Virus record (IMG/VR): IMGVR_UViG_2859821903_000003
Location: 1-58,025 of that record
Direction: 5' to 3' (one strand)
From: a virus
Taxonomy: Duplodnaviria; Heunggongvirae; Uroviricota; Caudoviricetes
DNA: 58,025 nt
Part shown: positions 5,223-56,938 of the stretch, in pieces
Position numbering within the stretch: the first letter of the stretch is position 1
Layout of the letters: every line of letters starts with the position of its first letter
The notes under the pieces: model-generated
Seen by the model: the letters and a program-made list of their open reading frames with translations, nothing else
Told to the model about the DNA's origin: nothing
Database searches by the model: none
Program-made: the position numbers and the translations under genes

Positions 5223-5518
5223 CAGTACACCCCCACATCACGGTAAGCCGTCCAGAGTACACCAATCGTCATGGGTACGCGTGTTTTTGCGTTATCCGCG
5301 ACAATCTGGCGATTTTCATACAGGTGAGCGATAAACATCATGCAGCCAATCTTTATGGCTGGCGTGAACTCCAGCCCGTCATCAAAGCGCCTGCCTATGT
5401 GTATCTGGCACGCCTCAAGCGATGCGGCAATGTATCCGCTGATTAACTGGTCTTCCTCGTCGCCATCGATGCGGCAATGGAGTTTCACTTCTTCCAGGGT
5501 GATAAGTTCTTCTGTCAT
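5222..5518 (-). CDS. Head-tail connector / DNA-packaging protein (gp6-like)
   Basis: 98 aa ORF in conserved position after the head-closure gene; translationally coupled. Confidence 0.45.
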   Translation of the reverse strand: MTEELITLEEVKLHCRIDGDEEDQLISGYIAASLEACQIHIGRRFDDGLEFTPAIKIGCMMFIAHLYENRQIVADNAKTRVPMTIGVLWTAYRDVGVY

Positions 5519-5895
5519 TTTTCCGCGCCCTCACGACAAAGAATTTCAAGGCGTGTCCTGGCGGCATCCGGCAGCGGCTGCCCGATGATATTCAGTACAC
5601 GCCCCGCCAGCGGCCCCGTATTGACCTTTATCCGGCTGGTGGCGTTGATGTCCTTCCTGTAGCGTATCCATACCCTTACCGTTCCAGTCGCCAGTTCTGC
5701 ACCCGATGAAATGGCCTCCTTGCTGCTGATCATGTTCACGCTTGCCCAGAGTGTGTGACCGTCCACCCACGTTTCGAGTATTTCGCCCGTCATGGCTCTG
5801 GTCTGTTTCAGGGTCTGAATCGTTACCCTGTCACGCAGTCGCCCTATGTTCATTCCGGTTTTTCTCCCTCGCTGATTTTTACTTCCTGTTTCCAT
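5515..5895 (-). CDS. Head closure / head-tail adaptor protein
   Basis: 126 aa ORF between portal and connector genes; family assignment by position and size. Confidence 0.45.
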   Translation of the reverse strand: METGSKNQRGRKTGMNIGRLRDRVTIQTLKQTRAMTGEILETWVDGHTLWASVNMISSKEAISSGAELATGTVRVWIRYRKDINATSRIKVNTGPLAGRVLNIIGQPLPDAARTRLEILCREGAEK

Positions 5896-7059: not shown

Positions 7060-7061
7060 TA

Positions 7062-7634
7062 TCACACCCCCGCTAAATCCGCCCACCAGCGGCGATTATC
7101 CGCACGCGGCATTTTTTCGGGGTGCTGCTCATACAGGGAACGGCGGGCCAGCTCCACGTCGGAATCAGGGTAAGCCGGTACGGATGTAACGGTAATTTCG
7201 TACAGTTCCGCCACCAGCACGGTGCGCACGCATGGATCTGTTGTGGTATCCCATACATCCTTACGGGAACGAAAGCCAAAGCTCATGCCGGATATATCAC
7301 CTCGTTTAACCAGTTCGATAACGTCGCGCCCTGTACTGGTATCCGGTGGGGTCAGTTCAAAGCGTAACCCTGTTTCGTCCTCTTCCAGTTTCAGCGTGCC
7401 GGAACGGGTGCGCCCCAGTAACATGCTGTGGTCATGCTCATACAGGCCGCGAACGTCATTACCCGCCGCAAGCCATTCAGTAAACGCCCCCCGCTGGAAT
7501 TTTTCGTAAAACTCACCCCATAACAGTTCTGAAAGCTTATCCCAGCGAACAATGTAGCCCGTCAGCGTACCGGCTCCGCTGGTGGTGATTTCCGATGACC
7601 GGATTTCCATACTCTTCATAATTTTTTCACCCAT
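7062..7634 (-). CDS. Prohead maturation protease (HK97 family)
   Basis: 190 aa ORF between capsid and portal genes; size and position typical of S78-type prohead protease. Confidence 0.7.
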   Translation of the reverse strand: MGEKIMKSMEIRSSEITTSGAGTLTGYIVRWDKLSELLWGEFYEKFQRGAFTEWLAAGNDVRGLYEHDHSMLLGRTRSGTLKLEEDETGLRFELTPPDTSTGRDVIELVKRGDISGMSFGFRSRKDVWDTTTDPCVRTVLVAELYEITVTSVPAYPDSDVELARRSLYEQHPEKMPRADNRRWWADLAGV

Positions 7635-7672
7635 AAAACACTAAAGGGGCTTTTAAGCCCTTCTGTATGCTA

Positions 7673-8830
7673 TTAATCGTCGTCCTGTGGCAGTTCCAGA
7701 ATCTTGATCGCGTTCGAATCCACCACGCCACCGCCTAAATATTTCTGCGCGAAAATTTTGATGAAGCCCGGCTCTGTGAGGTTGTCCGGTCTGGTGCGAA
7801 CACCTGTTTCGTGATCAACAATGTAGTAACCGCGTTTGAAGTCACCCAGGGCAATAACGTTATCCGGCATAAACTCCAGATATTCGACCGGAAGGCCCAG
7901 CAACGTATCAGGATCACCCGCCTGTAAACGGTCACGCCAGATGTAATCACCGTTCGCGTTCTTCACCTTCTGGAGTTTTGCCTCCGTCGTGGAGTTAACC
8001 ACCCAGACCGCGTTTTTGCGGTATTTTTTACGTAATGCAAATTTCAGGTCGATCAGCGGGTCCGCAGATGTCCACGCCAGAGATTCGGAAGGTTTAATTA
8101 CCTGCAACGTACCAAAATCACGCTCTTTGTCGTTCTTCTCTGCACGGGGTACGGATAAAAAGCCTTTTGCTTTTTTGTCACCGTCGCCCACAACCAGATC
8201 GCTTTCTTCGGTTTCCGTGAAGGTGTCGCCAATCTCGCCCGTCAGCCATGAAAGGATGTCCACATCGGAAAAATCCACGATTTCCTGCGTGGTGCGCGGG
8301 TACGCATAGACCGGATACAGCTTAATGCTCACCTCGTTAATCTGCGGGGTGCTGGTCTGTTCGCGTGCCTTACCCTCTTCACCGTGGTTAACGGTCGCAC
8401 CGCCAGCGGAAACAAGCTGCTTAAACTCGTTGCTGCTGATTTTCTTCACGGTACAGATGCGGCGCATGGTGGATTCATCCGTCAGCATTCGCATGATTTC
8501 GGTGTTCAGTTCGGGGATAACGGTATAACCACCATCAGCGGGAACGCCTGTACTCAATGCGCGGGTTTCACCTGTCAGAATGTAGTGACGTAGTTCGGCG
8601 GGGTCAGTGGTCTGGCTGTTTTTGCCTGGTTTACTGCGCTCTTCGTCAGCAACGGCCTCAAGGCGGGAGATGTCTTTATCGAGTGATTCAGCTTTAGCGC
8701 GTAATTCGTCAAATTTTGCGCCCTCAGCATCGTTAAGGCTGCGGTTTTCTTTTTCCGCGTTCTCCAGCATGTCGCGCATCTGATTTTTAATGGCGGTTTT
8801 CTGCTGGCGTAATTCGATTATTCTCGGCAT
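7673..8830 (-). CDS. Major capsid protein (HK97 fold family); start probably MPRIIELRQQ
   Basis: About 385 aa with N-terminal coiled-coil delta domain then capsid-like body; first gene of the head operon. Confidence 0.75.
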   Translation of the reverse strand: MPRIIELRQQKTAIKNQMRDMLENAEKENRSLNDAEGAKFDELRAKAESLDKDISRLEAVADEERSKPGKNSQTTDPAELRHYILTGETRALSTGVPADGGYTVIPELNTEIMRMLTDESTMRRICTVKKISSNEFKQLVSAGGATVNHGEEGKAREQTSTPQINEVSIKLYPVYAYPRTTQEIVDFSDVDILSWLTGEIGDTFTETEESDLVVGDGDKKAKGFLSVPRAEKNDKERDFGTLQVIKPSESLAWTSADPLIDLKFALRKKYRKNAVWVVNSTTEAKLQKVKNANGDYIWRDRLQAGDPDTLLGLPVEYLEFMPDNVIALGDFKRGYYIVDHETGVRTRPDNLTEPGFIKIFAQKYLGGGVVDSNAIKILELPQDDD

Positions 8831-9042
8831 AAAAAAAGTCCTGCAGTTAAGTAAGGAACTCCAGGACGCGGCAAACACTCAACCGTTTTTCATAAGGAAA
8901 TCAGCAATCGCACCGATCGTTTTCCCGCCTGGTAATGAATATTGGCGAGCACATTAACAGGCGGGAAAGTGGCCCCAGCGTCCTGGCACCACGGGCGAGA
9001 ATAATCATGATTCAGTTCGGGTAAAATATGCCGATCCGGTCA

Positions 9043-9072
9043 GCGAACAACGTGGAACAACCACGAACAAAT
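9043..9072 (-). promoter_or_regulatory. Array of 10-bp-phased TTGTTC hexamers upstream of the capsid operon
   Basis: Minus-strand reading TTGTTCGTGGTTGTTCCACGTTGTTC; related arrays at 1584-1611, 14425-14478 and 15811-15838. Confidence 0.45.
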
Positions 9073-9117
9073 AATTTACAAAACATGACAAAAAGCCGGA
9101 TTGCTCCGGCTGTGTGA

Positions 9118-9399
9118 TTATCTGTCCTGGTAATTTCGCCATATTTCATCACCAGCACCATCCATACCCATTTCGGCATAAGTGCGATCGACCGCCTTTT
9201 TCAGGTCTCCGTAATTATCCGGCGGCTCCGGTGGCCTCTGTGCCTTCCTGGAACATTCCAGCCGTCGCATCGTGATGTGATGCCGTTCCTTGTCTGTCTC
9301 CACCAGTTGCATGACTTCACCCCATCGCGCCGACGCTCTCCGGTAAAAGCCTTTCGCCTCCAGTTCTTCCGCTATGCGGTCATGTACCATCGTCCCCAC
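9118..9399 (-). CDS. PerC-family-like transcriptional regulator (tentative)
   Basis: 93 aa; segment AEELEAKGFYRRASARWGEVM resembles the PerC/Pch family as I recall it; not verified. Confidence 0.4.
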   Translation of the reverse strand: MGTMVHDRIAEELEAKGFYRRASARWGEVMQLVETDKERHHITMRRLECSRKAQRPPEPPDNYGDLKKAVDRTYAEMGMDGAGDEIWRNYQDR

Positions 9400-9402
9400 C
9401 CC

Positions 9403-9813
9403 TCAGAACGGAATATCATCACCGTAAGGGTCATCGCCTCCCGCTGGTGGCTGATTACCCTGTGTGCCTGTGGTCTTGCGTCGGCTCCCACCAGGACGTG
9501 CCGCACGGGCACTGATTACGCTGTCTGCAATAACCTGATAACCCTGCCGCGTTTCCCCGTTCTGTCCGGTCCACTGGCTGACCTGCATCGTGCCGGATAC
9601 GCTGGCAACGTCGCCTTTTTGATGTTTAGCCAGGAAGTCGGCCTGCTTACCAAATGCGATGACCGATAGCCATAACGTCGCCTGTCCATCCTGAGCCTGG
9701 CTGCATGGCAGCGATACCGCCATACGCGCCAGCGTCATCGGTGTACCCTTGCTGGTCTGTTTTACCTGCGGGTCGTCCACCAGCCGCCCGTAAGCTGCAA
9801 TTTGTGCTGTCAT
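9403..9813 (-). CDS. ssb: Single-stranded DNA-binding protein
   Basis: OB-fold-like N-terminus, Gly/Pro-rich linker and acidic C-terminal tail ending DDIPF. Confidence 0.8.
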   Translation of the reverse strand: MTAQIAAYGRLVDDPQVKQTSKGTPMTLARMAVSLPCSQAQDGQATLWLSVIAFGKQADFLAKHQKGDVASVSGTMQVSQWTGQNGETRQGYQVIADSVISARAARPGGSRRKTTGTQGNQPPAGGDDPYGDDIPF

Positions 9814-9822
9814 ATTGCCACC

Positions 9823-10128
9823 TCAGTGAAGCGATCCGGCGTTGTTCTTTTTCATCTCTTCCATCATTTTTTCAGTGAGCATTACGCACTGAAAACCCAT
9901 GTTTTTGATGTCCACGGGCTTCATGCCTTTATCAGTGGATATCACAGGAAGAATATCCTGATACACATCGCGGTCAGGGTAACTAAGCACACAAAGCGCC
10001 CATGATGCCACGGGTGAGGATCCTTCGTCTGTTTCAACCCACCAGCCTGGTGTAGCTGCGCTTATTTGCTGAATCGTGATCCGTCCGTTGTGCTTGTAAA
10101 GTTTTTCACCAAATTTTGGTTCGCTCAT
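9823..10128 (-). CDS. Hypothetical island protein (101 aa)
   Basis: ORF in the replication-proximal operon; no motif recognised. Confidence 0.35.
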   Translation of the reverse strand: MSEPKFGEKLYKHNGRITIQQISAATPGWWVETDEGSSPVASWALCVLSYPDRDVYQDILPVISTDKGMKPVDIKNMGFQCVMLTEKMMEEMKKNNAGSLH

Positions 10129-10406
10129 GATTCCAACTCTCCGGTTTTAACGTTGATTGTTGTTACCTGTTCCGCTTCGGCAATCTCCCGTTCTGTCAGC
10201 GTGGCAAAGTTTGCCGCCGCCGTGGTCATGAATGCGCTTATCAGGTCGGGATGTTCCTTCGCGTATCCTTCCCGCGTGTGGCGGTCTATCGTTCTGATTG
10301 CCACCTTTAAGGTGTGCTCAGTCATGTCTAACGCTTTATATTTTGGCTCTGTTCTGTCTCTGCGTTTTTGGGTCATTTCTCGCAACCTCTCACTTTTTCG
10401 CCTCAC
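10125..10406 (-). CDS. Hypothetical island protein (start uncertain, possibly the internal Met at 10325)
   Basis: ORF whose 5' portion overlaps the iteron array. Confidence 0.3.
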   Translation of the reverse strand: MRRKSERLREMTQKRRDRTEPKYKALDMTEHTLKVAIRTIDRHTREGYAKEHPDLISAFMTTAAANFATLTEREIAEAEQVTTINVKTGELES

Positions 10407-10578
10407 TTTTTCAAGCGTCTCACTTCGTCGCAGTTGGGATTTTCGGTTTTTCTATGTGTATGTTTCATAAGTATTTTTTTACCCCTCACTTTTGAGGATG
10501 TATACAGGTCGAAAAGTGAGGGGGAGCGGGCTAATTTTGGCCCTCTTTCTATCCCCTCGCTTTTGCTCCTCACTTTTA
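10379..10578. repeat. Iteron array, CTCACTTTT-type repeats (at least 6 copies, one inverted); candidate island origin of replication
   Basis: Copies at 10379, 10393, 10410, 10486, 10570, a CTCGCTTTT variant at 10553 and an inverted copy at 10511-10524, immediately 3' of the replication gene. Confidence 0.5.
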
Positions 10579-11976
10579 TAGCGGCGCTACATCATCCCCA
10601 TCGATACGAATAACCCCATCTTTTTCCAGCTTGTACAGCCAGCGCCGGAAGTTTTTCATTTCATACCCCAGCTTTTTCATGTCATCACGTAACATCTGGA
10701 TCGTGCACTTGTCGCCGTTCTGTGTGCGTGAACGGATGCACCCCCATAGCGCGGTATGGTTTTCCGTCTTGTTCCCTGCCTCCTCGATGCGCTCCAGTTC
10801 AACAGGAGGGCGCGGATCATCCACCACCACCAGCGACGTGATTAATTCACCGTCAGCGTCGGTAAAAAGCTCCACCACGCGTAAGTCATATGCGGCTTCT
10901 TTGAGTTCCTCCGCGTCCTTCATTTTGGTGCATGAGATAACCAGCGCTTCGCTTCCTGCGTCCTCCCTGCGTATCCGGTATTCAGCATCCAGCGAAGCAC
11001 GAAATGCACTGGAACCGCGCGCGCCTTTCGTCTCATCCTTGCCGGAATGGTGAACCACCAGCACCGTGGCCCCTGTGCGTCGTTTCAGTTCGTCACAACC
11101 ACGGATAAACGCCCCCATATCACGGGAATCATTTTCATCATTCCCACCAAAGCAACGCGCCAGCGTATCCAGAATAATCATGCGTACAGGTTTACCCGTT
11201 TCCCGCTCCACCTGACGGGCAGCGATAACCATTTCATCAACATCAAGCGGGGCAGCCGGAAAGATGGGGCGGTTTACCAGATACAGATTTTTCACCTGCT
11301 CATCGTGCACAACCTCCCAGGCTTTTACACGACGCGGAACACCTATACCGCCTTCACCAACCACATAGAGAACCGCACCATGTGCAACCCTGCGGCCTCC
11401 CCACTGGCGACCAGTGGCAACATGGCACGCCCACGATCCGGCAAGGAATGATTTATAGGACCCGCTAGCCCCGTATATGCTGCATAGCGATACCGCCGGA
11501 ATAATCCCCTTAACCACGTAATCCAGTTGCGTGTCGTATCCGGTAGATCCAACGCTCATCGGTAGCGTGGTTTTTCGCTGGTGGTTTTTTTCTTCCGCCG
11601 GCTCTTTCCCGCGCACCCGTTCCAGGTATTCGCGCCAGTTCTCCCGCATATGGCTGTGCATCCCTTCGGGGTAATAATTCGCATCAGTTACACCCGCCGC
11701 CGCCAGCTTGTGCGCAATGGCATTAATATTTGATGGCCTGATGTGGCCTGCCTTGTACAGCCGGACACAATAGCGCCCCTCGTCGATGATTCTCAGGTCT
11801 GCCAGTTCATCCAGTTGATCATCAGCCAGCACAACGGGAGGCACATTATCGCCAGCCAGTCGCCCGTCCTGTTCCTGCCACTGTTTCGCATGTGCCCAGG
11901 CATCACTACCCGCAAAAATAATGGCTTCGGTCATCTTGTCGTAAGGCTGTTTTTTTAAGTTCGGTGCGCTTTTCAT
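10576..11976 (-). CDS. Replication protein, RecA-like/AAA helicase family
   Basis: 466 aa; Walker A GASGSYKS, Walker B-like LVVHHSGKDE; adjacent to iterons. Confidence 0.65.
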   Translation of the reverse strand: MKSAPNLKKQPYDKMTEAIIFAGSDAWAHAKQWQEQDGRLAGDNVPPVVLADDQLDELADLRIIDEGRYCVRLYKAGHIRPSNINAIAHKLAAAGVTDANYYPEGMHSHMRENWREYLERVRGKEPAEEKNHQRKTTLPMSVGSTGYDTQLDYVVKGIIPAVSLCSIYGASGSYKSFLAGSWACHVATGRQWGGRRVAHGAVLYVVGEGGIGVPRRVKAWEVVHDEQVKNLYLVNRPIFPAAPLDVDEMVIAARQVERETGKPVRMIILDTLARCFGGNDENDSRDMGAFIRGCDELKRRTGATVLVVHHSGKDETKGARGSSAFRASLDAEYRIRREDAGSEALVISCTKMKDAEELKEAAYDLRVVELFTDADGELITSLVVVDDPRPPVELERIEEAGNKTENHTALWGCIRSRTQNGDKCTIQMLRDDMKKLGYEMKNFRRWLYKLEKDGVIRIDGDDVAPL

Positions 11977-12272
11977 TTCTTGCCCCTGAATCCGTTAATC
12001 ATGGTTTTCAGCTTCTGGATGTTTGCCCGTGCCCTGGCGTTGCTGGTGGGCACGTTATGCGGCGCGGTCTGTACCAGAGAAAAATCACGCCGGAACTGAT
12101 AAACAGGCATCACGCAATCATATTCGTAACCTTCACGGCGGTAGGTTACGCGCCGTTCTTCCACGCCCTTAATCATTACCGTGCCGCCGTAATGGTCGCG
12201 GTAAATATCACCGCGCGTAAATTTAGGGTGAGTGTTGCCACTGGCAGTTAAGCCAGAATATTTAAGTTTCAT
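11973..12272 (-). CDS. Hypothetical island protein (99 aa)
   Basis: ORF coupled to the replication gene start. Confidence 0.35.
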   Translation of the reverse strand: MKLKYSGLTASGNTHPKFTRGDIYRDHYGGTVMIKGVEERRVTYRREGYEYDCVMPVYQFRRDFSLVQTAPHNVPTSNARARANIQKLKTMINGFRGKK

Positions 12273-12277
12273 TATTT

Positions 12278-12523
12278 TTATTCTCCGGTGTGCTGTTCTT
12301 TATATCCGTCGTGCAATAGATCTATTTCTTGCAGTTCCATTATTACAGGCTCAAGAAGCGTTATTAATGCCGTGGCAATTCTTGATTTTTGTTTGTCGCG
12401 TTCATTGTCGCCAAGTGTTTCAAGCCATATGCGCAATATTTCCAGCATGTTTTCACTGTGAGAAAGTGCAAGAAATGCGCGGTCTATTGTTTCGTGGTAA
12501 ATATCACGCATATTAATCCCCAT
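12278..12523 (-). CDS. Hypothetical island protein (81 aa)
   Basis: ORF in the leftward early operon. Confidence 0.35.
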   Translation of the reverse strand: MGINMRDIYHETIDRAFLALSHSENMLEILRIWLETLGDNERDKQKSRIATALITLLEPVIMELQEIDLLHDGYKEQHTGE

Positions 12524-12725
12524 CCGTCGTTTTTCTTAAAATAACCTCTGTCACGAAATCAGCATAATCGGCGGCGATATTCAGTACATCAAGCCCGTTG
12601 ATTTATATTCTCTCGTGGAAAGTAAGAAAAAAGCCGCTCTAATAAGTTCTGGCATTGACGAAAGCGCATCAGCCGCACCATCAGGAACGCCGGAAAATTC
12701 CTGTTTCAGGGAATTAAAACGATCA

Positions 12726-12989
12726 TCACGCATAACCCCCCCCATTTTCACAATCGGCAACAAGAATATTTTTAGCGTCATTCAGTGACCGCGTTGCGAT
12801 GTATCGGATACATTCCAGGGCGAACTGTGTCCGGTCTTTCTGTTCTTCTCCCTGCGCAAGCTCTGCCGTGCATTCAATATCAATAAGCGCGTGCATCAGC
12901 GTAGTGAGCGCGGCGGCTGCTGCGTCCGGTGTGGTTTTATTGTGCATAGGTTTCTCCCTGGCGGATTTTTGCAGCGAATACAGCAACAC
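12726..12989 (-). CDS. Hypothetical island protein
   Basis: ORF in the leftward early operon; start uncertain. Confidence 0.25.
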   Translation of the reverse strand: MLLYSLQKSAREKPMHNKTTPDAAAAALTTLMHALIDIECTAELAQGEEQKDRTQFALECIRYIATRSLNDAKNILVADCENGGGYA

Positions 12990-13140
12990 AACCGGACGGG
13001 CAACGGCTACGCGCTTCGCGTTCCGTCCAGGCGGTTACGTGGATGATTTGAGATTCTCCGGCACTCAGGGCCAGAAAACGCCACACAAAGGCCGTTTGTG
13101 TGTGTACAAGGTGTGGTATATGATTTACGGCAACCATAAC
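12937..13140 (-). CDS. Hypothetical first gene of leftward operon (start taken as MVAVNH)
   Basis: The longer ORF would overlap the operator palindromes, so the internal start is preferred. Confidence 0.25.
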   Translation of the reverse strand, partial: VMVAVNHIPHLVHTQTAFVWRFLALSAGESQIIHVTAWTEREARSRCPSGCVAVFAAKIRQGETYAQ

Positions 13141-13227
13141 GGCTCCTAGTTTACGTTGTTGGTTAGAAGCCCTGCGAGTGGTAATGACACTTGCGGGGCT
13201 TTGCTTTTTTAAGTGCTCTTGTGTTAA

Positions 13228-13272
13228 GGTGGCCACCTAACAATGGAAAGGCTAATTCAATAGGTGGCCACT
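13228..13272. promoter_or_regulatory. Twin palindromic operators AGGTGGCCAC (13228-13237 and 13263-13272) in a divergent control region
   Basis: Two copies of a 10-bp palindrome with 35 bp centre-to-centre spacing, between the divergent leftward operon and the RHH gene. Confidence 0.5.
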
Positions 13273-13331
13273 TGTCAACAATCAAACGCGATAAAAGCCC
13301 TAAAGGGGACGGGCAATCCCCACAATTCAGA

Positions 13332-13463
13332 ATGCGAATTTCTCCAGAGCTAAAAGAGCAATTCGACAAAGAAGCACAGAGCGACGGCATAAGCCTAGCC
13401 AACTGGCTTAAAGAGTTGGGGCGCACTGAACTAAAGCGGCGCGGCATAGAACCCAAAGGATAA
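13332..13463 (+). CDS. Small ribbon-helix-helix (Arc/CopG-like) DNA-binding protein, candidate island repressor
   Basis: 43 aa from MRISPELKEQFDKEAQSDGISLANWLKELGR; RHH-like pattern; divergent from the replication operon. Confidence 0.4.
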   Translation: MRISPELKEQFDKEAQSDGISLANWLKELGRTELKRRGIEPKG

Positions 13464-13505
13464 AAACTATCAGCGCCGTGGTGTGAGGTATTACGGCGCA
13501 TTGCT

Positions 13506-13694
13506 ATGCAGGACAACACAATGACCGATAAAGAATTGACCAAAACATTATCACCGGCACGGAAAAGACGGCGCAGAAAGATAGAGCATGAATCAGAAAG
13601 ATTCGCGCCATGTGCTTTTGCCCTTGAGCAATTCCTTAAAGAGTATAGGGAAAAGCGCTCATTGCAGGTATGGCAACGAACTGAACCAGACTGA
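13506..13694 (+). CDS. Hypothetical small basic protein
   Basis: 62 aa ORF downstream of the RHH gene on the same strand; terminator follows. Confidence 0.25.
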   Translation: MQDNTMTDKELTKTLSPARKRRRRKIEHESERFAPCAFALEQFLKEYREKRSLQVWQRTEPD

Positions 13695-13789
13695 TTGCAT
13701 TGCCCACCAGCCTGATAGCGGCTATCATCCCCGTGCTTATGTTTGGGATCACATACACATAAGGCGCAGCGGGTTATCTGTTCAGAAAG

Positions 13790-13817
13790 GCGGCTCCATT
13801 TCGGGGCCGCTTTTTTT
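13790..13817 (+). terminator. Rho-independent terminator of the rightward RHH transcript
   Basis: GCGGC stem / 11-nt loop / GCCGC followed by T7. Confidence 0.5.
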
Positions 13818-13963
13818 ATGCCTGAAAAACCCCAATTTTGTGGTTTTCCAGTCTCACCAGGGCGAACAAATCCCCGCCCACGTTCTGGCGTATATTCAAT
13901 CTTCATGGTTATAGCTCTGTGTTCAGATGATTGATGTGTGGCGGCTGCGTGCCGCCAGCGTGA

Positions 13964-14152
13964 TTAATGAACTGCCTTGCAGCTATCCTTCCAGGCCAGA
14001 ACCTCGGATAAAGACCAGCCAACGGAACGACCGCCAAGTTTACGACGTGATGGGAATTGTCCGGCCTTTTCCAGGCGGTAGCGACACGTACGGCTAAGGC
14101 CGGTTAGTTTTTCGCATTCTTTTTCACGTATAAACCGATCAGTGCTTAACAC
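13964..14152 (-). CDS. alpA: AlpA-family phage transcriptional regulator / excisionase-like protein
   Basis: 62 aa; LSRTCRYRLEKAGQFPSRRKLGGRSVGWSLSEVLAW matches the AlpA pattern; next to int. Confidence 0.75.
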   Translation of the reverse strand: MLSTDRFIREKECEKLTGLSRTCRYRLEKAGQFPSRRKLGGRSVGWSLSEVLAWKDSCKAVH

Positions 14153-14424
14153 TATTGCCCCCTTTCGTTTCTTAAAGAGTCATCAGGTGTCTTATTGTGT
14201 CGTATTGTTCCCGCTAGAGTGATGAATGGCAAATACTGAGGATGTATGATTTACAGAAAATGAAAAAGTAAGAATAAAATCTTTTAAATTCATGTTAATA
14301 CAAAGGCATAAAATATTGTTCCATGCCTTTTTTCTCGCTCTTTAAAGAGTGATTCGCTAGTGTATAAAAAACCAGTAACACATTAAAAATCAGCTACTTA
14401 TAAATCCGTACGCTTTTTCGCCTC

Positions 14425-14478
14425 TTGTTCGTAGTTGTTCCACATTGTTGCTCATTGTTGCACGTTGTATCTGTTCGC
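14425..14478 (+). promoter_or_regulatory. Array of five or more 10-bp-phased TTGTTC/TTGTTG hexamers between int and alpA
   Basis: TTGTTCGTAGTTGTTCCACATTGTTGCTCATTGTTGCACGTTGTAT in AT-rich intergenic DNA upstream of alpA. Confidence 0.45.
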
Positions 14479-14516
14479 ATATCCAGTATGCGCATACTGA
14501 AAAAACACGAAAAAAA

Positions 14517-15746
14517 TTATTTTCTTCTGGCTACTGGTAGCGTGGTTACGTTTTCATGTGTTCCCGCCAGTATCCCTAACCGCTCCGTCCACATATCCAG
14601 CGCATTGCGTTTCGCATCCAGATAACGGGAATGATTATAAACTCGCTGCATTCCTGGCATCTGGTGGCCTGTAAGCTGCTCCACGACATGCGGATCAACG
14701 CCTAAATCGTTCAGCATGGTTGTAAAGGTGCGCCGGATGTCATGCAGTGACCAGTGAGGGTGTTTAAGCCTCCTGTGCGCTAATCTGCCGTACTGCGACA
14801 CGCTGGTTTCCTGTTTCACTTCCCCCAGCAATAAGCCCGTGTGCCTGTTCTGCTCCACCAGCTGCGTGACGAACGGCATTATCGCTTCCGGTATGGGCCG
14901 GAATATGGCTACCTTCGTTTTGCTGTGCTCCTTCGGAACAGTCCAGAGCATTTCGGTAAAATCCCACTCGCCGATCTCCGATAACCTAAGTTCGACCGTC
15001 CGGCATCCGAACACAATCAGGAGGCGGATTAGCGCGATGTAGTAGGGGGAGAATATTTTTTTGTCCAGTGCCTGCAATAATTCGCCAAGTTCTTTGTTGC
15101 TTAAGACACGCTCGCTTATATCCGGTTTTTTCCCAACGTCCGCCACACTCATATCATCAAGAACGTTGCTGATTGCATAGCGCCGCTTCCGGCAGAACTT
15201 AAGCGCCTGCTTGCATGTCTGTAGCAGGAACCCGGCGGAAACAGGGGCTTGCTTTGCCACCCGATCAAAACAGGCCAGCCAGTGCCGTAGCTCGCATTTA
15301 TCCAGCGGCATAGGGCCAATGTGCTGTATTACGTGATTATTTAGCCGCTTTTTCAGTGGGTCATAATCCACACGGTTTTCCTTTGCGTACGACTCAAGCC
15401 AGTAGGTGAGCGCATCACCAACCGTTACCGGCTTTAACGCTTCCTGTACGGTGTAATTCATCTCATGACGTGGATTTTTCCCCTCAGCCAGCCATGCGCG
15501 ACACTGGGCGGCTTTTTCCCTGGCTGATTTCAGACTCAGATCAGGATAATTTCCCAGCTTAATGCGTTCCGGTGGTGCCCCCCTTCCCGTTCCGGCCCTG
15601 TAAGTGAAATACCAGGTCAATTTCCCTGATGTTAAATATTTCACGCTCAAGTTTCCGCCATCACTATAAAACGTGTTTTTCTCCGCTGGCTTACCATGAA
15701 GTTTCCTTAGCAAGGTATCGCTCAGTTTGTTCATTGCTCTGCTCAC
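14517..15746 (-). CDS. int: Tyrosine integrase, P4-type
   Basis: 409 aa; N-terminal arm-binding-like domain (KLSDTLLRKL...SDGGNLSVKY), catalytic HDIRRTF and LLGHQ...RVYNHSRY. Confidence 0.85.
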   Translation of the reverse strand: MSRAMNKLSDTLLRKLHGKPAEKNTFYSDGGNLSVKYLTSGKLTWYFTYRAGTGRGAPPERIKLGNYPDLSLKSAREKAAQCRAWLAEGKNPRHEMNYTVQEALKPVTVGDALTYWLESYAKENRVDYDPLKKRLNNHVIQHIGPMPLDKCELRHWLACFDRVAKQAPVSAGFLLQTCKQALKFCRKRRYAISNVLDDMSVADVGKKPDISERVLSNKELGELLQALDKKIFSPYYIALIRLLIVFGCRTVELRLSEIGEWDFTEMLWTVPKEHSKTKVAIFRPIPEAIMPFVTQLVEQNRHTGLLLGEVKQETSVSQYGRLAHRRLKHPHWSLHDIRRTFTTMLNDLGVDPHVVEQLTGHQMPGMQRVYNHSRYLDAKRNALDMWTERLGILAGTHENVTTLPVARRK

Positions 15747-48498: not shown

Positions 48499-48570
48499 CT
48501 GGCGATTCTGGCGGTTTGAACCGCCCCGGGAATCCTGGAGACTAAACTTCCTGAGAAAGAGGTAAACAGG

Positions 48571-48897
48571 ATGACTAAAAATACTCGTTTTTCCCCCGAA
48601 GTCCGTCAGAGGGCGATTCGTATGGTTCTGGAAAGTCAGGGCGAATATGACTCACAGTGGGCGGCAATTTGTTCCATTGCCCCAAAGATTGGCTGTACAC
48701 CGGAGACTCTGCGTGTCTGGGTACGCCAGCATGAGCGGGATACCGGAGGCGGTGATGGAGGGCTCACCACCGCTGAACGTCAGCGTCTGAAAGAGCTGGA
48801 GCGTGAAAATCGTGAACTGCGCCGCAGTAACGATATCCTTCGCCAGGCTTCCGCTTATTTTGCGAAGGCGGAGTTCGACCGCCTCTGGAAAAAATGA
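48571..48897 (+). CDS. IS629 OrfA
   Basis: 108 aa [31 protein letters not shown]…. Confidence 0.9.
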
Positions 48898-49784
48898 TGC
48901 CACTGCTGGATAAGCTGCGTGAGCAGTACGGGGTCGGACCGCTATGCAGCGAACTGCATATTGCCCCGTCAACGTATTACCACTGTCAGCAACAGCGACA
49001 TCATCCGGATAAACGCAGTGCCCGTGCGCAGCGCGATGACTGGCTGAAGAAAGAGATACTGCGCGTATACGATGGGAATCATCAGGTATACGGTGTGCGT
49101 AAAGTCTGGCGTCAGTTGTTACGGGAAGGTATCAGAGTGGCCAGATGCACTGTGGCACGTCTCATGGCGGTTATGGGACTTGCCGGTGTTCTCCGGGGTA
49201 AAAAGGTCCGTACGACCATCAGCCGGACAGCCGTTGCCGCAGGCGACCGCGTAAACCGTCAGTTCGTGGCAGAACGACCTGACCAGCTGTGGGTGGCTGA
49301 TTTTACTTACGTCAGCACATGGCAGGGCTTCGTCTATGTGGCGTTTATCATTGATGTGTTTGCCGGATACATTGTGGGGTGGCGGGTCTCATCGTCCATG
49401 GAGACGACATTCGTGCTGGATGCACTGGAGCAGGCGTTATGGGCCCGTCGACCGTCCGGCACGGTCCATCACAGTGATAAAGGTTCTCAGTATGTATCGC
49501 TGGCCTACACACAGCGGCTTAAGGAAGCCGGATTACTGGCATCAACAGGAAGTACAGGCGACTCGTATGACAACGCGATGGCGGAGAGCATCAATGGTCT
49601 TTACAAAGCGGAGGTAATACACCGTAAGAGCTGGAAAAACCGTGCAGAAGTGGAACTGGCCACACTCACGTGGGTGGACTGGTATAACAATCGACGATTG
49701 CTGGAAAGGCTGGGCCATACTCCTCCGGCAGAAGCAGAAAAAGCTTATTATGCTTCCATCGGAAACGATGATCTGGCAGCCTGA
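48894..49784 (+). CDS. IS629 OrfB transposase (DDE)
   Basis: 296 aa ORF overlapping orfA; IS3-family arrangement. Confidence 0.9.
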
Positions 49785-50045
49785 GTTCACAGATAAAACA
49801 CTCTCCAGGAAACCCGGGGCGGTTCATCCAGTTCCATTGCACGAAGTTTGGGAATAACTGCTTTCCACCGCACAACAGCCACATGTGAAATTCCAAGAGC
49901 CTCAGCTACTAGTCGCTTTTTTTTGAAATAGCGCAGAACATCATCTTTGAACATAAAACTCTCCTGTTATTTCGAGCAGAAGGGTAACAATAGTTACACA
50001 ACAATGTCAACCATAGCAACATCACTTGGTAGTAACATTGGTTAC

Positions 50046-50720
50046 ATGAAAAACACTATCAGCGAACGTATTCGGAATCGTCGAAAAGACGTTGGATTAA
50101 CCCAACAGCAGGTTGCGAAAGCAATCGGCATATCTCGTGTATCCGTAACAAAATGGGAAAATGGCTCTTCAAAACCTGACGGTGAGAATTTGTATCTACT
50201 GTCAAAATTGCTTTCCAAATCTCCTGAATGGATTCTTTATGGAAAGGACAGTCACGATAAAACCGATGATCTGCGTCTGAATCAGTACCCTTACATTAGT
50301 GACAACATCGCCCGGTTGCCCGTTTTAACGTGGGAACAGGCTGGTTATTGGGATATGAGTTGTCCAGTAACCAAGATTCCTGGTATTAATAACTGGGTTG
50401 ATGTCATGACAAAAACCGCTGAAAACTCTTTTTTATTGCATGTTGAGGGAGATGCGATGACAAACTCTAACGGCCTCCCAACCATCCCCGACGGATCTAC
50501 CGTGCTGATCACACCATGCTCAAGTAACATTAGAGAACTGGTGGGAAAAATAATCTTAATCCAATTGGAAGGAACGCCAAACGTAACACTAAAAAAAGTT
50601 GCGATTGACGGACCAAACATCTATCTGTTGTCACTGAATCCGCTTTACAAACCCATCGAACTGAATGGTGGTTACACCATTAAAGGTAAAGTTTCACAAA
50701 TACATCAATACTTAGACTGA
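50046..50720 (+). CDS. CI-like prophage repressor (HTH + S24 LexA-like peptidase domain)
   Basis: HTH LTQQQVAKAIGISRVSVTKWENG; C-terminal autocleavage-like domain; start taken at MKNTISERIRNRRK. Confidence 0.75.
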   Translation: MKNTISERIRNRRKDVGLTQQQVAKAIGISRVSVTKWENGSSKPDGENLYLLSKLLSKSPEWILYGKDSHDKTDDLRLNQYPYISDNIARLPVLTWEQAGYWDMSCPVTKIPGINNWVDVMTKTAENSFLLHVEGDAMTNSNGLPTIPDGSTVLITPCSSNIRELVGKIILIQLEGTPNVTLKKVAIDGPNIYLLSLNPLYKPIELNGGYTIKGKVSQIHQYLD

Positions 50721-50725
50721 GTCAG

Positions 50726-50750
50726 AACCCGCATTCATTGCGGGTTTTTT
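50726..50750 (+). terminator. Rho-independent terminator after the repressor gene
   Basis: AACCCGCA-TTCAT-TGCGGGTT followed by a T-run. Confidence 0.6.
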
Positions 50751-50991
50751 ATGCCCTCAAATGTACCTTTTACAACATTGTATTGACTCGAAAGGTAACT
50801 CCTATCACCTTAACAACATACCAACCCACCCCGCCCACAGAACGCAGGGAAATACTTCGAGTTACCCGGCAGTGGTCAGGGGTTAAGTAGCCAGCCCGAG
50901 GCGTAAGAACATGACGGCAGGGTTCAACTTTAATAACTATGCAGCAGGTTTTTGTTCCGCTACCCCGGCGTTAAGGGGAAATGAGGTCAGC

Positions 50992-51147
50992 ATGGATACT
51001 ATCGATCTTGGCAACAGCGAATCTCTGGTATGTGGCGTGTTCCCCAACCAGGACGGTACGTTCACCGCGATGACGTATACCAAAAGCAAAACGTTTAAAA
51101 CCGAAAATGGTGCCCGTCGCTGGCTGGAAAGAAACTCAGGTGAGTGA
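50992..51147 (+). CDS. Small prophage protein, YdaF-like (tentative)
   Basis: 51 aa MDTIDLGNSESLVCGVFPNQDGTFTAMTYTKSK…; resembles Rac YdaF from memory. Confidence 0.4.
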   Translation: MDTIDLGNSESLVCGVFPNQDGTFTAMTYTKSKTFKTENGARRWLERNSGE

Positions 51148-51148
51148 T

Positions 51149-51277
51149 ATGGATTTCGACACAATCATGGAAAAGGCTTACGAAGAATACTTCGAAGGTC
51201 TTGCCGAAGGCGAAGAAGCTCTCAGCTTCAACGAATTTAAACAGGCGCTTTCCAGTTCGGCAAAATCTAACGGCTGA
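51149..51277 (+). CDS. Small acidic prophage protein, YdaG-like (tentative)
   Basis: 42 aa ORF (MDFDTIMEKAYEEYFEGLAEGEE…) read directly from the DNA; below the ORF-track cutoff. Confidence 0.35.
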   Translation: MDFDTIMEKAYEEYFEGLAEGEEALSFNEFKQALSSSAKSNG

Positions 51278-51306
51278 TAAGCGAAACAGCACCGCGAGGA
51301 ATCAGT

Positions 51307-51525
51307 ATGCAGAAACGAGAACCCGTCATCATCGCGCCAGACTATACCGATGATGAACTTTATGAGTGGATGCACCAGAAAATTAATGCAGCGCAGGATC
51401 TGAAATGGGCCAATGAAGCCAGGGCTAAGCAGGCTGAAAATCTGTCCGCTCTGGAGCAGGATATCACTAATCTGGAAAAAGCAGCGGCATTAAGCATTGC
51501 CAGAATGATTACATACCCGCGTTAA
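51307..51525 (+). CDS. Hypothetical early-left protein (72 aa)
   Basis: ORF only. Confidence 0.3.
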   Translation: MQKREPVIIAPDYTDDELYEWMHQKINAAQDLKWANEARAKQAENLSALEQDITNLEKAAALSIARMITYPR

Positions 51526-51547
51526 TAGCTAACCAACGAGGCTAATA

Positions 51548-51922
51548 ATGGAATTTAAAGATTTACCAATGCAATTCCAGGAAATGGCAGCGAATATAGT
51601 TCGTTCCCAACTGGCGACTCTTGACCTGAGTACCGTAGAAAAAGAAACCATCGATACTATATCCGGTAACGTGCGTCGTGCCTTTATCGGTCTGTGCGAA
51701 GAGAAGCAGCTCTCTGATAACCAGGATTTACATGAAAAATACTTCCTGGAATTAATGGACATCATTAATAAAGGATTTGGCTTGTTAATGAAAAAGAAAG
51801 GGATTCGAATAGCTCCCCTTGAAAATCATTTTACAGCAAGCAGTATTAATTCCTGTGATTTAAAGCATCACACATCCGATGGGAAAGTTGAATCAAACAA
51901 CAAAAGATCAATTAATCATTAA
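51548..51922 (+). CDS. Hypothetical early-left protein (124 aa)
   Basis: ORF only. Confidence 0.35.
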   Translation: MEFKDLPMQFQEMAANIVRSQLATLDLSTVEKETIDTISGNVRRAFIGLCEEKQLSDNQDLHEKYFLELMDIINKGFGLLMKKKGIRIAPLENHFTASSINSCDLKHHTSDGKVESNNKRSINH

Positions 51923-51929
51923 TTTATTC

Positions 51930-52265
51930 ACAGGTGAGGTAGAGTGCGTGCGCCGGACACGGATAAGAATCCGGCACTGACAGTTTACTGAAAAGGATAT
52001 ATCCCTGAAAAGTCAGGGCATAACGCGAAAGCGCACGGCGAAGTTCGTCTCTCTGTAGGTAGTCGTTAAATTTAATTCGACCGTGCGCTTCCGGTTGTGG
52101 CAATCCGCGAAATGGCGCGGCGGTAAGTATGGCGGGGTTATTCCTTCCCCGCTGAGGACACTGGGTTGTCAGGTTGACCATACGCTTAAGTGACAACCCC
52201 GCTGCAACGCCCTCTGTTATCACTTTTCTGGTGATTCGGCGGAAACGGATATCCGCCCTTTTTAA
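51930..52265 (+). other. About 340 bp structured non-coding region ending in a terminator-like hairpin; candidate ncRNA or degraded locus
   Basis: Several local hairpins (51953-51974, 52001-52017, 52038-52101, 52163-52198) and GGCGGAAACGGATATCCGCC + CTTTTT at 52237-52262. Confidence 0.3.
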
Positions 52266-52572
52266 AGTGAATTTTGTGATGCGGTGAATGCGGCTATGCG
52301 CACGCGGAACAGTTAAAGCAGTAAGGCGGTATTTTACGGGCGTAACGAGCATCAACTAATCCGGCGTTAATTGTTAACTGGTTAACGTCACCTGGAGGCA
52401 CAAGGCACTGCATCACAAAATTCATTGTTGAGGACGCGATAATGGAAACGTTATTACCAAACGTTAATACGTCTGAAGGTTGTTTTGAAATTGGTGTCAC
52501 TATCAGTAACCCTGTATTTACTGAAGATGCCATTAACAAGAGAAAACACGAACGGGAGTTATTAAATAAAAT

Positions 52573-52761
52573 ATGCATTCTTTCAATGCTGGCCCGTTTA
52601 CGTCCGATACAAAAAGGATGCTGGCAATGAATACAGCATTTGCACTTATTCTGACATTTTTTCTTGTTTCCGGAGAGCCAGTTGATATTGCAGTCAGTGT
52701 TCACAGGACAATGCAGGAGTGTGTGACTGCAGCAACCGAACAGAAAATTCCCGGTAACTGA
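52573..52761 (+). pseudogene. Small hydrophobic-N-terminus protein gene truncated by IS600
   Basis: The ORF stop is supplied by the IS600 end; reading across the 3-bp AAC duplication continues …KIPGNCYPVDKVIHQDNN. Confidence 0.35.
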
Positions 52762-54022
52762 GGTGTACTGGCAATAGCGGACACTACCATTTGTTCTTTT
52801 TTTAAGCAGCCATCTGATGATATTTTTCCCTGAAGGCTGCCGGGGAGATATTCCCCAGACGAGAGTGACGACGCTGACGATTGTAGAAAATCTCAATGTA
52901 TTCCCGTATTACTGAGATGGCTTCATCCCGGTTATTAAAACGATAGTGGCTCAGGCTCTCATTTTTCAGCGTTCCCCAGAAGCTTTCCATCGGAGCGTTG
53001 TCGTAACAGTGACCTTTACGCGACATTGATGTTTTCAGACCAGACTGCTCCTGTATGACCCGGTAATCGTATGCGCAGTACTGTGAACCTCGATCAGAGT
53101 GGTGGATTAGCCCGGCAGGTGGGCGCTGGCTCCTGAGCGCCATAAACAGGACTTTACCTGTCAGCTCTTTTGTCATGCGCTCTCCCATGGCGTAGCCGAC
53201 AATTTCGCACGTATAAACATCTTTGATGCCAGCGAGGTACAACCATCCCTCCTGTGTGGCAACATACGTCAGGTCCGCCACCCAGACCTGATTTGGTGCT
53301 GTAGGAGCGAACGTCTGGTTCAGCAGATTTGGCGCAACTGGCAGATTGTGGTTCGGGTTCGTAGTCGCTCTGAACTTGCGTTTCTGCTTACAGCGTAGCC
53401 TTAGCTCCTTACGAAGACGTGCCAGTCTGTCACGACCAACGATGATGCCATTCTCTGCCAGCTCCGTCTGGAGCCGCCGGGTTCCATATGTTTCGCGAGT
53501 GCGGATATGTGCCACCTTAATCTCCAGTTTTAGCCGCTCATCACTTTGTTTTCTGTCTGAGGGTTCATGCTGTACCCAGTTGTAATAACCGCTCCTGGAT
53601 ACACCAAATACCTGACACATCGCTTCAATGGGAAATTGTTGTCGCCATTGTTCGATTAACGCGTATTTTTCAGCGACTCCTGTGCAAAATACGCTGTTGC
53701 TTTTTTTAATATATTTCGCTCAAGGCGAGCTTCATTTAACGCCTTACGCAGTTGCAGAATTTCAGATTCCAGTTCAGCCACCGTGCGGGAACCAGGAGTA
53801 CCGAGCCCTTTTCTGGCGGCGGTAACCCATTGTCCTAAAGTGCCTTCAGGAAGGGATAATCGGGAAGCGCCTTCACTGATCGAAAGTTGATTTTCAAGAA
53901 CCGTTCTGACAGCTTCGGCTTTGAACTCTTTAGAGTAACGTTGGTTTTTTCTGCTCATTATTAGCTCCTTCTGATGCCATTCTATTTCAGAAAGGAGTGT
54001 CCGTTAAACTCAGGCTACCTCA
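52759..54022 (-). mobile_element. IS600 copy 2 (1264 bp), intact, 3-bp AAC target duplication
   Basis: Complete ends; orfA 53656-53958 and orfB 52802-53620 (272 aa) on the minus strand. Confidence 0.9.
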
Positions 54023-54177
54023 AACTGTTACCCGGTCGATAAAGTTATTCACCAGGATAATAACTAAATCCCGGCAGGTCTTTAAAACAGTTCCGTAATA
54101 AACATCCGATTTCATTCTTATATGCCAGAAATGGCAGGGATTTGTTCACCCTTAAATCTGTAATGAGGTAAAACAAA

Positions 54178-54600
54178 ATGAGTAAAGTCTTTATTTGCGC
54201 CGCCATTCCGGACGAACAGGCAATAAAGGAAGAAGGTGCAGTCGCTGTAGCCACTGCCATTGAAGCCGGTGATGAACGTCGCGCCCGCGCAAAATTTCAC
54301 TGGCAATTCCTGGAACATTATCCGGCTGCTCAGGACTGCGCTTATAAATTTATTGTCTGTGAGGATAAACCCGGCATACCCCGCCCTGCCCTCGATTCCT
54401 GGGATGCTGAATATATGCAGGAAAACCGCTGGGATGAGGCGTCTGCTTCCTTTGTCCCGGTTGAGACTGAATCAGATCCGATGAACGTCACTTTTGACAA
54501 GCTGGCCCTGAAGCACAGAACGCTGATATGGTTATTAGCGCACAGGAATTGTTGCAGGAAGACATGGCAACATTCGACGGACATATCGTTGAAGCGTTGA
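54178..54600 (+). CDS. Hypothetical early-left protein; 3' end overlaps the next ORF in another frame
   Basis: 140 aa ORF; the last ~25 codons look out of frame. Confidence 0.3.
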   Translation: MSKVFICAAIPDEQAIKEEGAVAVATAIEAGDERRARAKFHWQFLEHYPAAQDCAYKFIVCEDKPGIPRPALDSWDAEYMQENRWDEASASFVPVETESDPMNVTFDKLALKHRTLIWLLAHRNCCRKTWQHSTDISLKR

Positions 54601-55661
54601 TGAAAATGCCAGAAGTTAACGCCATGTATCCGGAGCTTAAGCTGCATGCCATCGGGTGGGTTAAGCATAAATGTAAGCCTAGTGCCAAATGGCCCGAAAT
54701 TCAGGCAGAGATGCGCATCTGGAAAAAACGTCGCGAAGGTGAACGCAAGGAAACCGGAAAATACACATCTGTTGTTGATCTCGCCCGCGCCAGAACCAAT
54801 CAACAGCACAGTGAAAATTCAACAGGAAAAATCAGCCCGGTCATTGCTGCCATTCATCGCGAATACAAGCAGACATGGAAAACACTGGATGACGAACTGG
54901 CCTACGCTCTCTGGCCTGGTGATGTGGATGCCGGAAACATTGACGGCAGCATCCATCGCTGGGCAAAAAATGAAGTTATCGACAACGACCGCGAAGACTG
55001 GAAGCGTATCTCGGCATCAATGCGCAAACAGCCTGATGCCCTTCGCTACGACCGCCAGACTATTTTTGGCCTTGTCCGTGAACGTCCGATCGACATTCAC
55101 AAAGACCCTGTGGCACTGAACAAATACATTACTGAATACCTGACTACAAAGGGCGTGTTTGAAGATGAAGGAAGAAATCAGAGCGCAACTGATACTCTCT
55201 CGTCGCCAGTACCAGAAACTGATGCAGTGGAAACGGCAATTCCGGACAACGAAAAAACCGAATGCAAAGTGGAAGTCGAACCATCTGTAGAGCGTGAGGG
55301 GCCGTTCTACTTCCTCTTCACCGACAAGGATGGCGAAAAATACGGTCGCGCAAACAAACTTTCTGGTCTGGAAAAAGCACTAGCCTTGGGAGCTACGGAA
55401 ATCACAAAAGAGGAATACTTCGCACGTAAAAACGGCACGTACTCAGGTTCACAACAAAATATTGGTGCATCTGACACGACCGCACAACCAGAGCCGGTAA
55501 AAGTTACCGCTGACGAAGTAAACAAAATTATGCAGGCAGCCAATATCAGCCAGCCTGACGCCGATAAGTTGCTTGCTGCCTCTCGCGGAGAATTTGTTGC
55601 AGGGATTAGCGACCCGAATGATCCGAAATGGGTTAAGGGATCCAGACCCGCGATTCTGTAA
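54528..55661 (+). CDS. Hypothetical acidic early-left protein (377 aa)
   Basis: Long ORF with plausible codon usage; no motif recognised. Confidence 0.4.
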
Positions 55662-55759
55662 ACCAGAACCAGCATGAATCGGAACGGAACTACCAAAAAG
55701 CAGAACAAAACAGCCCAAATGCGTTACAAAACGAGCCAGAAACGAAACAGCCTGAACCA

Positions 55760-55984
55760 GTGGCGCAACAGGAAGTGGAAAAAGTCTGCACCGCCTGCGG
55801 TCAGACCGGCGGCGGCAACTGCCCTGATTGTGGCGCGGTGATGGGCGACGCAACATACCAGGAAACATTCGATGAAGAGTATCAGGTTGAAGTTCAGGAA
55901 GATGATCCGGAGGAAATGGAAGGCGCTGAACATCCACACAAGGAGAACACTGGCGGCAATCAGCATCACGATAGCGATAATTAA
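55760..55984 (+). CDS. Small zinc-ribbon-like protein with acidic tail
   Basis: [16 protein letters not shown] pattern followed by an acidic C-terminus. Confidence 0.35.
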
Positions 55985-56014
55985 ACTGGCGAGACGGCAG
56001 ATCACTCAATTAAG

Positions 56015-56607
56015 GTGAATGGTCATCAAGAAATCACATCCACCAGCAGGACGTGTGACCATCTAATGATCGACCTTGAAACCATGGGAAAAAATCCTGA
56101 TGCCCCGATCATCTCAATAGGTGCAATATTTTTCGATCCGCAAACCGGAGATATGGGACCGGAATTTAGTAAGACTATCGTTCTGGAAACTGCTGGCGGG
56201 GTCATTGATCGGGACACCATTAAATGGTGGCTTAAGCAATCACGCGAAGCGCAATCTGCCATTATGACCGATGAAATCCCGTTAGATGATGCACTGTTAC
56301 AATTGCGGGAATTTATCGACGAAAACTCCGGTGAATTTTTTGTTCAGGTCTGGGGAAATGGAGCCAACTTCGACAACACGATTTTGCGCCGTTCATACGA
56401 ACGGCAGGGATCCCCTGCCCGTGGCGTTACTACAACGATCGCGATGTACGCACAATCGTTGAGCTGGGGAAAGCCATAGACTTCGATGCCAGAACTGCTA
56501 TCCCATTCGAAGGTGAGCGCCATAATGCACTTGATGACGCCCGTTACCAGGCAAAATACGTTTCAGTTATCTGGCAAAAACTGATCCCGAGTCAGGCTGA
56601 TTTTTAA
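56015..56607 (+). pseudogene. DEDDh-family 3'-5' exonuclease, frameshifted near 56405
   Basis: Exo I-like motif MIDLETMG in ORF 56015-56479; conserved HNALDDARYQAKY continues in the +1 frame to the stop at 56605-56607. Confidence 0.6.
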
Positions 56608-56659
56608 TGTTCAACCGTCGCCAGTTATCGTTGATATTCTGCAACTGGCGCGTTCCGGA

Positions 56660-56938
56660 GTGATAGCCATGAGCGAACAGTACCTGATAACGCTCGACGA
56701 GTGGAAACCAAAACGGTTCAGTCTCCCAATAACAAACACTACCCTGGTGAAATACGGAAAACTAGGATACATCGTTCCAAGACCACAAAAAATTCGTGGG
56801 CGTTGGCTGATAGATCGCCGAGCAGTATTTGTTGGGCCTGGTGAAACAGGAATTGCGCCGGAAATTCATACTGCCGATGATGATGCACTGAAGGAGATTT
56901 TAACTCATGTCACCGAGGCCACGAAAAAACAGCACTGA
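56660..56938 (+). CDS. xis: Excisionase-like protein
   Basis: 92 aa ORF immediately upstream of and overlapping int. Confidence 0.5.
   Translation: MIAMSEQYLITLDEWKPKRFSLPITNTTLVKYGKLGYIVPRPQKIRGRWLIDRRAVFVGPGETGIAPEIHTADDDALKEILTHVTEATKKQH

Follow-up and report, generated by a model that had tools for sequence, protein, structure and literature searches.

The two overlapping open reading frames (ORFs) found at 54178-55661 of the window, i.e., of the whole analysed stretch of 58,025 nt, are successive pieces of a single early-left prophage exonuclease gene, which encodes around 823 amino acids (aa) where it is intact. The gene really carried by the lineage is a pseudogene with an in-frame deletion of 13 codons and a change from GAA to TAA at 55982, its products being confined to a 602-codon ORF and an untethered DEDDh exonuclease domain. 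The picture of one protein of 140 aa and another of 377 aa most likely arises from the under-calling of a single base, and the two frameshifts further downstream most likely have the same kind of origin. To this joint explanation, one pseudogene in the lineage combined with three homopolymer consensus errors in the deposited sequence, a probability of about 0.87 is assigned. Within the phrog_2082 exonuclease family, the locus counts as a pseudogene.

One exonuclease gene in two overlapping reading frames

According to the ORF listing, ORF1 extends from 54178 to 54600 (140 aa) and ORF2 from 54528 to 55661 (377 aa), both on the plus strand and both with an ATG start, such that they overlap by 73 nt (54528-54600). 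They are read in frames 1 and 0, respectively, so that ORF2 is shifted by -1 with respect to ORF1. In these respects the preliminary description is borne out by the deposited sequence. The predicted products are both mildly acidic (pI 5.7 for ORF1 and 5.5 for ORF2). The described stretch, 54178-55661, stops after 60% of the gene, whose end is at 56607; behind ORF2, three further ORF regions follow on the same strand, at 55760-55984, at 56015-56479, and then xis and int.

ORF1 occupies positions 1-113 (E 9e-81) and ORF2 positions 131-503 (E 2e-272) of the 'exonuclease' profile phrog_2082, whose 823 positions are covered in full (1-823) by an intact homologue. A megablast search of 54100-55750 against phage genomes finds as its match a single long coding sequence (CDS) in the phages Evi, mEp460, and Tritos and in the PPompW prophages, labelled there as 'exonuclease', 'exodeoxyribonuclease VIII', or 'exodeoxyribonuclease encoded by cryptic prophage CP-933P'. 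This CDS measures 2,481 nt in Evi (826 aa, VUF53858.1) and 2,472 nt in Tritos (TRITO_27), where dicB-ydfD precede and xis-int follow it. With blastn, 54102-56616 of the window is directly seen to be collinear with the whole Evi gene (L001, 5001-7567). Since ORF1 and ORF2 are collinear with a single CDS and consecutive on phrog_2082, they are, on sequence grounds, consecutive collinear fragments of one (pseudo)gene at 54178-56607 (plus strand), the whole of which is collinear with the intact genes of 823 or 826 aa. By the same comparison they appear as genuine coding sequence and not as chance ORFs.

Members of this already known gene family are annotated in thousands of genomes, in part under the alternative label "3'-5' exoribonuclease domain-containing protein". 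Matches exist in 4,800 of 5,426 complete E. coli genomes, with 80% or more of the query covered in 3,489 of the 5,426; the best of them are 98% identical and consist of one CDS of 2,472 nt (823 aa) in the context dicB-ydfD, xis-int, and potC. In MAFFT alignments, the window gene is 98.3% identical to its closest intact copy (L003, 4080-6551) and 90.8% identical to the gene of phage Evi. Within the 90%-identity cluster (23,183 members), the great majority, as well as the closest relatives, encode the region in one frame.

Concerning its architecture, the intact protein consists of the domains YdfE_N and YdfE_C, a RecE-like central module with a CxxC..CxxC segment, and a C-terminal DEDDh 3'-5' exonuclease domain. 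Precomputed Pfam matches place YdfE_N (PF27430) in ORF1 and YdfE_C (PF27432) in ORF2, these two domains corresponding to the first ~260 aa and the body of ORF2. A local copy of Pfam, in which the YdfE_N and YdfE_C models are absent, yielded no match for either ORF. A single-sequence AlphaFold2 prediction of ORF2 reached a mean pLDDT of 37.6 and a pTM of 0.19, values too low for the model to be of use. The preliminary description had considered the two proteins as not assignable, a statement that does not hold: both derive from the N-terminal part of a ubiquitous exonuclease of lambdoid prophages, the central module of which is RecE-like. The profile searches reveal clear homology to ordinary phage recombination and nuclease proteins, an outcome which that description had itself counted against its reading. 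The term 'uncharacterised' applies in a narrow sense, as the family is biochemically uncharacterised in its N-terminal ~450 aa, whereas the gene itself can be assigned.

Lesions of the gene and probable errors of the assembly

The lesions of the window copy were called by alignment to the closest intact copy (98.3% identity) and to the Evi gene, and their positions were checked separately, such that they can be read directly from the sequences. Compared with the closest intact copy there are five: three deletions of 1 nt, each of them situated in a run of four G or C, one in-frame deletion of 39 nt, and the change from GAA to TAA. The first 1-nt deletion reduces a run of four C, present in all relatives, to three C (54506-54508) and splits ORF1 from ORF2. 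The 39-nt deletion (13 codons), evident from the alignment to intact copies, has its junction at 54523-54525, and the lost segment is flanked by direct repeats of ATGGTTA. The net loss between the frames of ORF1 and ORF2 hence amounts to 40 nt, 1 nt in the C run and 39 nt in this segment. At 55637-55639, in the context GGGGATCC, three G stand for the four G of the relatives, and this second 1-nt deletion terminates ORF2 at 55661. The nonsense codon TAA at 55982-55984, where intact copies possess GAA, divides the third from the fourth ORF fragment. Finally, at 56407-56409 and again in the context GGGGATCC, four G of the relatives are reduced to three, which shortens the ORF of the exonuclease domain, ending at 56479. 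All lesion positions refer to the plus strand.

The fragments can be assigned to the intact protein as follows. The first ~109 residues of ORF1 are the true N-terminus (YdfE_N), and its last ~31 residues are out of frame after the loss at 54506-54508. ORF2 corresponds to about residues 131-503 of the intact protein, i.e., to YdfE_C and the start of the RecE-like module, and its final ~8 residues, behind the loss at 55637-55639, are read in the wrong frame. The third fragment (55760-55984, plus strand, 74 aa) contains the zinc-ribbon-like CxxC..CxxC segment that is shared with RecE. The fourth (56015-56479, plus strand) contains the DEDDh domain (Pfam PF16473, Rv2179c-like, E 3.5e-42) and covers positions 2-123 of the 177 positions of that profile, the rest being lost to the third 1-nt deletion.

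The end of the window is 100% identical to the NCBI record CP026839.1 (GCA_002950115.1, a chromosome of 4.27 Mb). Among about 15 billion proteins, the products of 140, 365, and 74 aa are found on this contig only; the product of 365 aa is ORF2 as started by the gene caller at 54564, and an exact look-up of the 377-aa form starting with the ATG at 54528 returned no record. Conceptual repairs of the gene were built and then looked up by exact sequence, also in Logan contigs, i.e., assemblies of public sequencing runs. The 602-aa repair, in which both homopolymers are restored and the 13-aa deletion and the TAA are kept, is found exactly on three Logan contigs, and the 180-aa C-terminal repair, with the third homopolymer restored, on four. 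Exact look-ups found neither variants with only one of the first two 1-nt deletions retained nor the fully intact version of 810 aa.

One of the Logan contigs (L007, from run ERR5984641, with an identical contig in four samples) matches 53993-58025 of the window base by base, apart from exactly the three 1-nt deletions and a single substitution at 56874. The absence of the 1-nt losses from independent short-read contigs is thus a direct observation. The substitution (C in the window, G in the contig) lies inside the excisionase ORF (56660-56938) and is the sole one over 4 kb. Because the 39-nt deletion and the TAA are both present in independent short-read contigs, these two lesions are real in the lineage.

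As a control elsewhere in the window, positions 1-14147 were compared with a second contig (L008, from run ERR5984630). Apart from one substitution, the two differ by seven 1-nt deletions, all of them on the side of the window and all situated in G/C runs. At six of the seven sites, the unrelated E. coli strain FORC_042 shows the same difference from the window. Altogether, in 18.2 kb compared with short-read contigs of the same lineage, which stem from other sequencing runs and not demonstrably from the same isolate as CP026839.1, there are 10 single-base deletions, no insertion, and two substitutions. Several of the 10 deletion sites are intergenic. Among runs of at least four bases, 10 of 104 G/C runs are shortened, whereas all 225 A/T runs have their full length (Fisher p = 7e-6).

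Because the deletions are one-directional and specific to one base composition (G/C runs), a consensus error, as in an unpolished assembly, and not a mutation is very probably responsible in CP026839.1, such that the overlap of ORF1 and ORF2 should be regarded as an assembly artefact. The deletions probably have their cause in the sequencing chemistry, and the single-contig chromosome suggests a long-read platform behind CP026839.1.

Alternatively, the three 1-nt deletions might be genuine mutations of the isolate, in which case the gene would be a multiply frameshifted pseudogene and the overlapping ORFs real, non-functional remnants. Through the 39-nt deletion and the nonsense codon at 55982, the lineage has already lost a functional gene, such that selection would not act on further decay; insertion sequence (IS) elements and real pseudogenes occur in the host genome, e.g., a split terminase gene common to the short-read contigs, and Shigella-like, IS-rich genomes do accumulate real pseudogenes. 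Moreover, with comparison contigs from other runs, private mutations of the isolate are conceivable. However, 10 single-base deletions as compared to two substitutions in 18.2 kb, in the absence of insertions, are hard to reconcile with mutation, the deletions are confined to G/C runs of at least four bases and spare the more common A/T runs, as fits base calling, and several fall into intergenic DNA. Genuine mutation is therefore considered unlikely. Even if the deletions were real, ORF1 and ORF2 would still be remnants of a gene already killed by its stop codon. The frameshift mutation suggested by the preliminary description stands as a description of the sequence, given the net loss of 40 nt between the frames, but the shifting loss of 1 nt is most likely an error of the assembly.

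Under the preferred reading, i.e., consensus errors in an existing pseudogene, the 602-codon ORF spans 54178-55984 in the numbering of the window, which is two bases short, and stops just before the catalytic domain. The frame of the gene is interrupted both by the TAA at 55982-55984, which is found in the independent contigs as well, and, in this assembly, by the three frame breaks. That the 602-aa N-terminal protein, composed of YdfE_N, YdfE_C, and the RecE-like zinc-ribbon module but lacking the nuclease domain, functions on its own, e.g., as an adaptor or inhibitor of host recombination or defence machinery, appears quite improbable. For the near-ubiquitous E. coli prophage exonuclease in general, its biochemically uncharacterised N-terminal ~600 aa might likewise fulfil a separate role.

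Two further readings go back to the preliminary description and deserve hardly any credence. A programmed -1 ribosomal frameshift joining ORF1 and ORF2 into a functional product would agree with the -1 frame of ORF2 and the overlap of 73 nt, but a slippery heptamer is missing (no X_XXY_YYZ motif in the frame of ORF1 within 54498-54600, the zone open in both frames, or in any frame within 54480-54600), relatives possess a single frame, the two-frame form exists in one assembly only and the Logan contig across the gene is in frame, and further downstream the gene is interrupted again, by two frame breaks and a stop codon. Likewise, two separate uncharacterised early-left genes, e.g., a defence or anti-defence pair, would suit the early-left arm of a lambdoid prophage and the missing matches in the local Pfam copy, but both ORFs are collinear parts of one CDS annotated as an exonuclease, the RecE model NF007259 recognises ORF2 (E 5e-32), and PADLOC-DB v2 contains no family matching ORF1 or ORF2, the intact protein showing only a generic DEDDh match in its C-terminal domain (E 1.6e-5).

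As a caution, G/C homopolymers are under-called at about 10% of the runs of at least four bases in the 18 kb checked, and any 'frameshifted', 'overlapping', or 'split' ORF in the window should be suspected as an artefact before it is interpreted biologically. The overlap itself brings no new biology, the underlying gene being a common prophage exonuclease with an ordinary nonsense mutation.

Prophages and insertion elements around the gene

The exonuclease gene is carried by a lambdoid (Qin/PPompW-like) prophage at 20626-58025, which is inserted between potB (ending at 20625) and potC, with its int gene (56907-58025) at the edge of the window. In related prophages of E. coli STN0717-20 and Z1322HEC0003 the int end likewise adjoins potC. 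The position of the gene between dicB/ydfD and xis-int is also found in the window, though with an IS3-family element inserted in ydfD (DUF1482). This element (52761-54022, minus strand), which we take to be IS600-like from its transposase sequence, comprises ORFs at 53656-53958 and 52802-53620; homology to the closest intact copy stops at 52760 and begins again at 54023. It ends 155 nt upstream of the start codon of the exonuclease gene and separates the latter from dicB/ydfD, its direct predecessors in intact prophages. The insertion is common to the lineage, because the Logan contig across the gene begins at 53993, inside the end of the element. It probably also interrupts transcription from the early-left promoter.

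A second IS3-family insertion is situated at approximately 48570-49790, between a prophage gene matching IstB_IS21/Bac_DnaA and a cro-like gene, and contains ORFs with HTH_Tnp_1 and rve domains, one of them at 48894-49784 (precomputed gene table, L005). The locus of the small RNA DicF (~52200-52300) is a variant, in which the 5' part (TTTCTGGTGA...) is conserved and the 3' stem-loop is replaced by a hairpin that is shorter by ~17 nt (GGCGGAAACGGATATCCGCC); it has no Rfam match at the gathering score, and an Rfam scan of 50000-58025 likewise gave nothing at the gathering thresholds.

Furthermore, the window contains a small prophage or satellite-like element at ~2196-15746, between phoQ and roxA. 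It encodes an HK97-type capsid protein, a protease, a portal protein, small and large terminase subunits, and an HNH endonuclease, as well as a RepA-like helicase, SSB, PerC, and an integrase (14517-15746). Its large terminase gene is split into ORFs at 3124-4152 (342 aa) and 2491-3075 (~183 aa), a split that short-read contigs from several runs also carry and that is hence real. The deletion sites in G/C runs outside the exonuclease gene are 1638, 1777, 6977, 7658, 10553, 12594, and 12736. The deletion at 6977 shifts the frame of the portal gene of the small element, whose ORF (5850-6929) encodes 359 aa as compared to 391 aa in the short-read contig, and those at 12594 and 12736 fall within a hypothetical CDS annotated in FORC_042.

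Comparison with RecE, DexA, and intact prophage exonucleases

The intact homologue shares its central module with RecE (exonuclease VIII) of the Rac prophage (E. coli K-12 b1350). Its residues 262-625 align with residues 278-591 of RecE (BLASTP, E 4e-63, 40% overall), and from about residue 474 on most positions are identical, including a sequence of 31 residues and the CxxC..CxxC segment. The NCBIfam RecE model NF007259 is matched over positions 271-603, with 274 bits for the intact homologue and 111 bits for ORF2, neither of which reaches the equivalog cut-off of 1269 bits. BLASTP revealed no similarity to the first ~277 residues of RecE or to its C-terminal 5'-3' nuclease domain (~600-866), the alignment stopping at 591. 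Concerning the catalytic domain, a DEDDh 3'-5' exonuclease is found in the intact homologue, whereas RecE possesses a 5'-3' nuclease; equally, recT follows recE in Rac, whereas in the window an excisionase gene (PF07825) and the integrase gene are situated downstream and recT is missing. An identity with RecE was rejected on account of the score (274 as compared to 1269 bits), the missing RecE nuclease domain, and the missing adjoining recT. Judged from its domain sequences, the intact protein is probably a prophage-encoded 3'-5' exonuclease built on a RecE-type non-catalytic scaffold.

The likeness to YdfE of the Qin prophage is given by the precomputed Pfam matches to YdfE_N and YdfE_C; the papers searched yielded no functional study of YdfE or of these two domains, and no paper citing CP026839.

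In the C-terminal ~180 aa of the intact homologue, PF16473 (Rv2179c-like) is matched end to end (E 7e-69) and RNase_T with E 3.5e-5, and this part resembles a chain of PDB entry 8KEL (227 aa, named 'Exodeoxyribonuclease' by its depositors; E 1.5e-6). The entry presumably represents DexA of phage T4. Despite the common PF16473 domain, there are differences between T4 DexA and other Rv2179c-like DEDDh exonucleases on the one hand and the prophage proteins on the other: In intact prophage copies the domain is fused to an N-terminal extension of ~630 aa, it lies outside ORF1 and ORF2, and in the present lineage the extension is severed from it by the stop codon.

The closest agreement is with the lambdoid/Qin-type prophage exonuclease of E. 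coli (phrog_2082; e.g., WP_200931902.1 in strain STN0717-20), with which the window copy shares the domain order and the position directly behind dicB-ydfD and directly ahead of xis-int, being collinear over the whole gene and 98.3% identical at the nucleotide level. In comparison with the intact exonucleases of this type, the window copy lacks 13 codons and possesses a premature TAA, and it further differs by three 1-nt homopolymer losses in this assembly and by the IS element 155 nt upstream.
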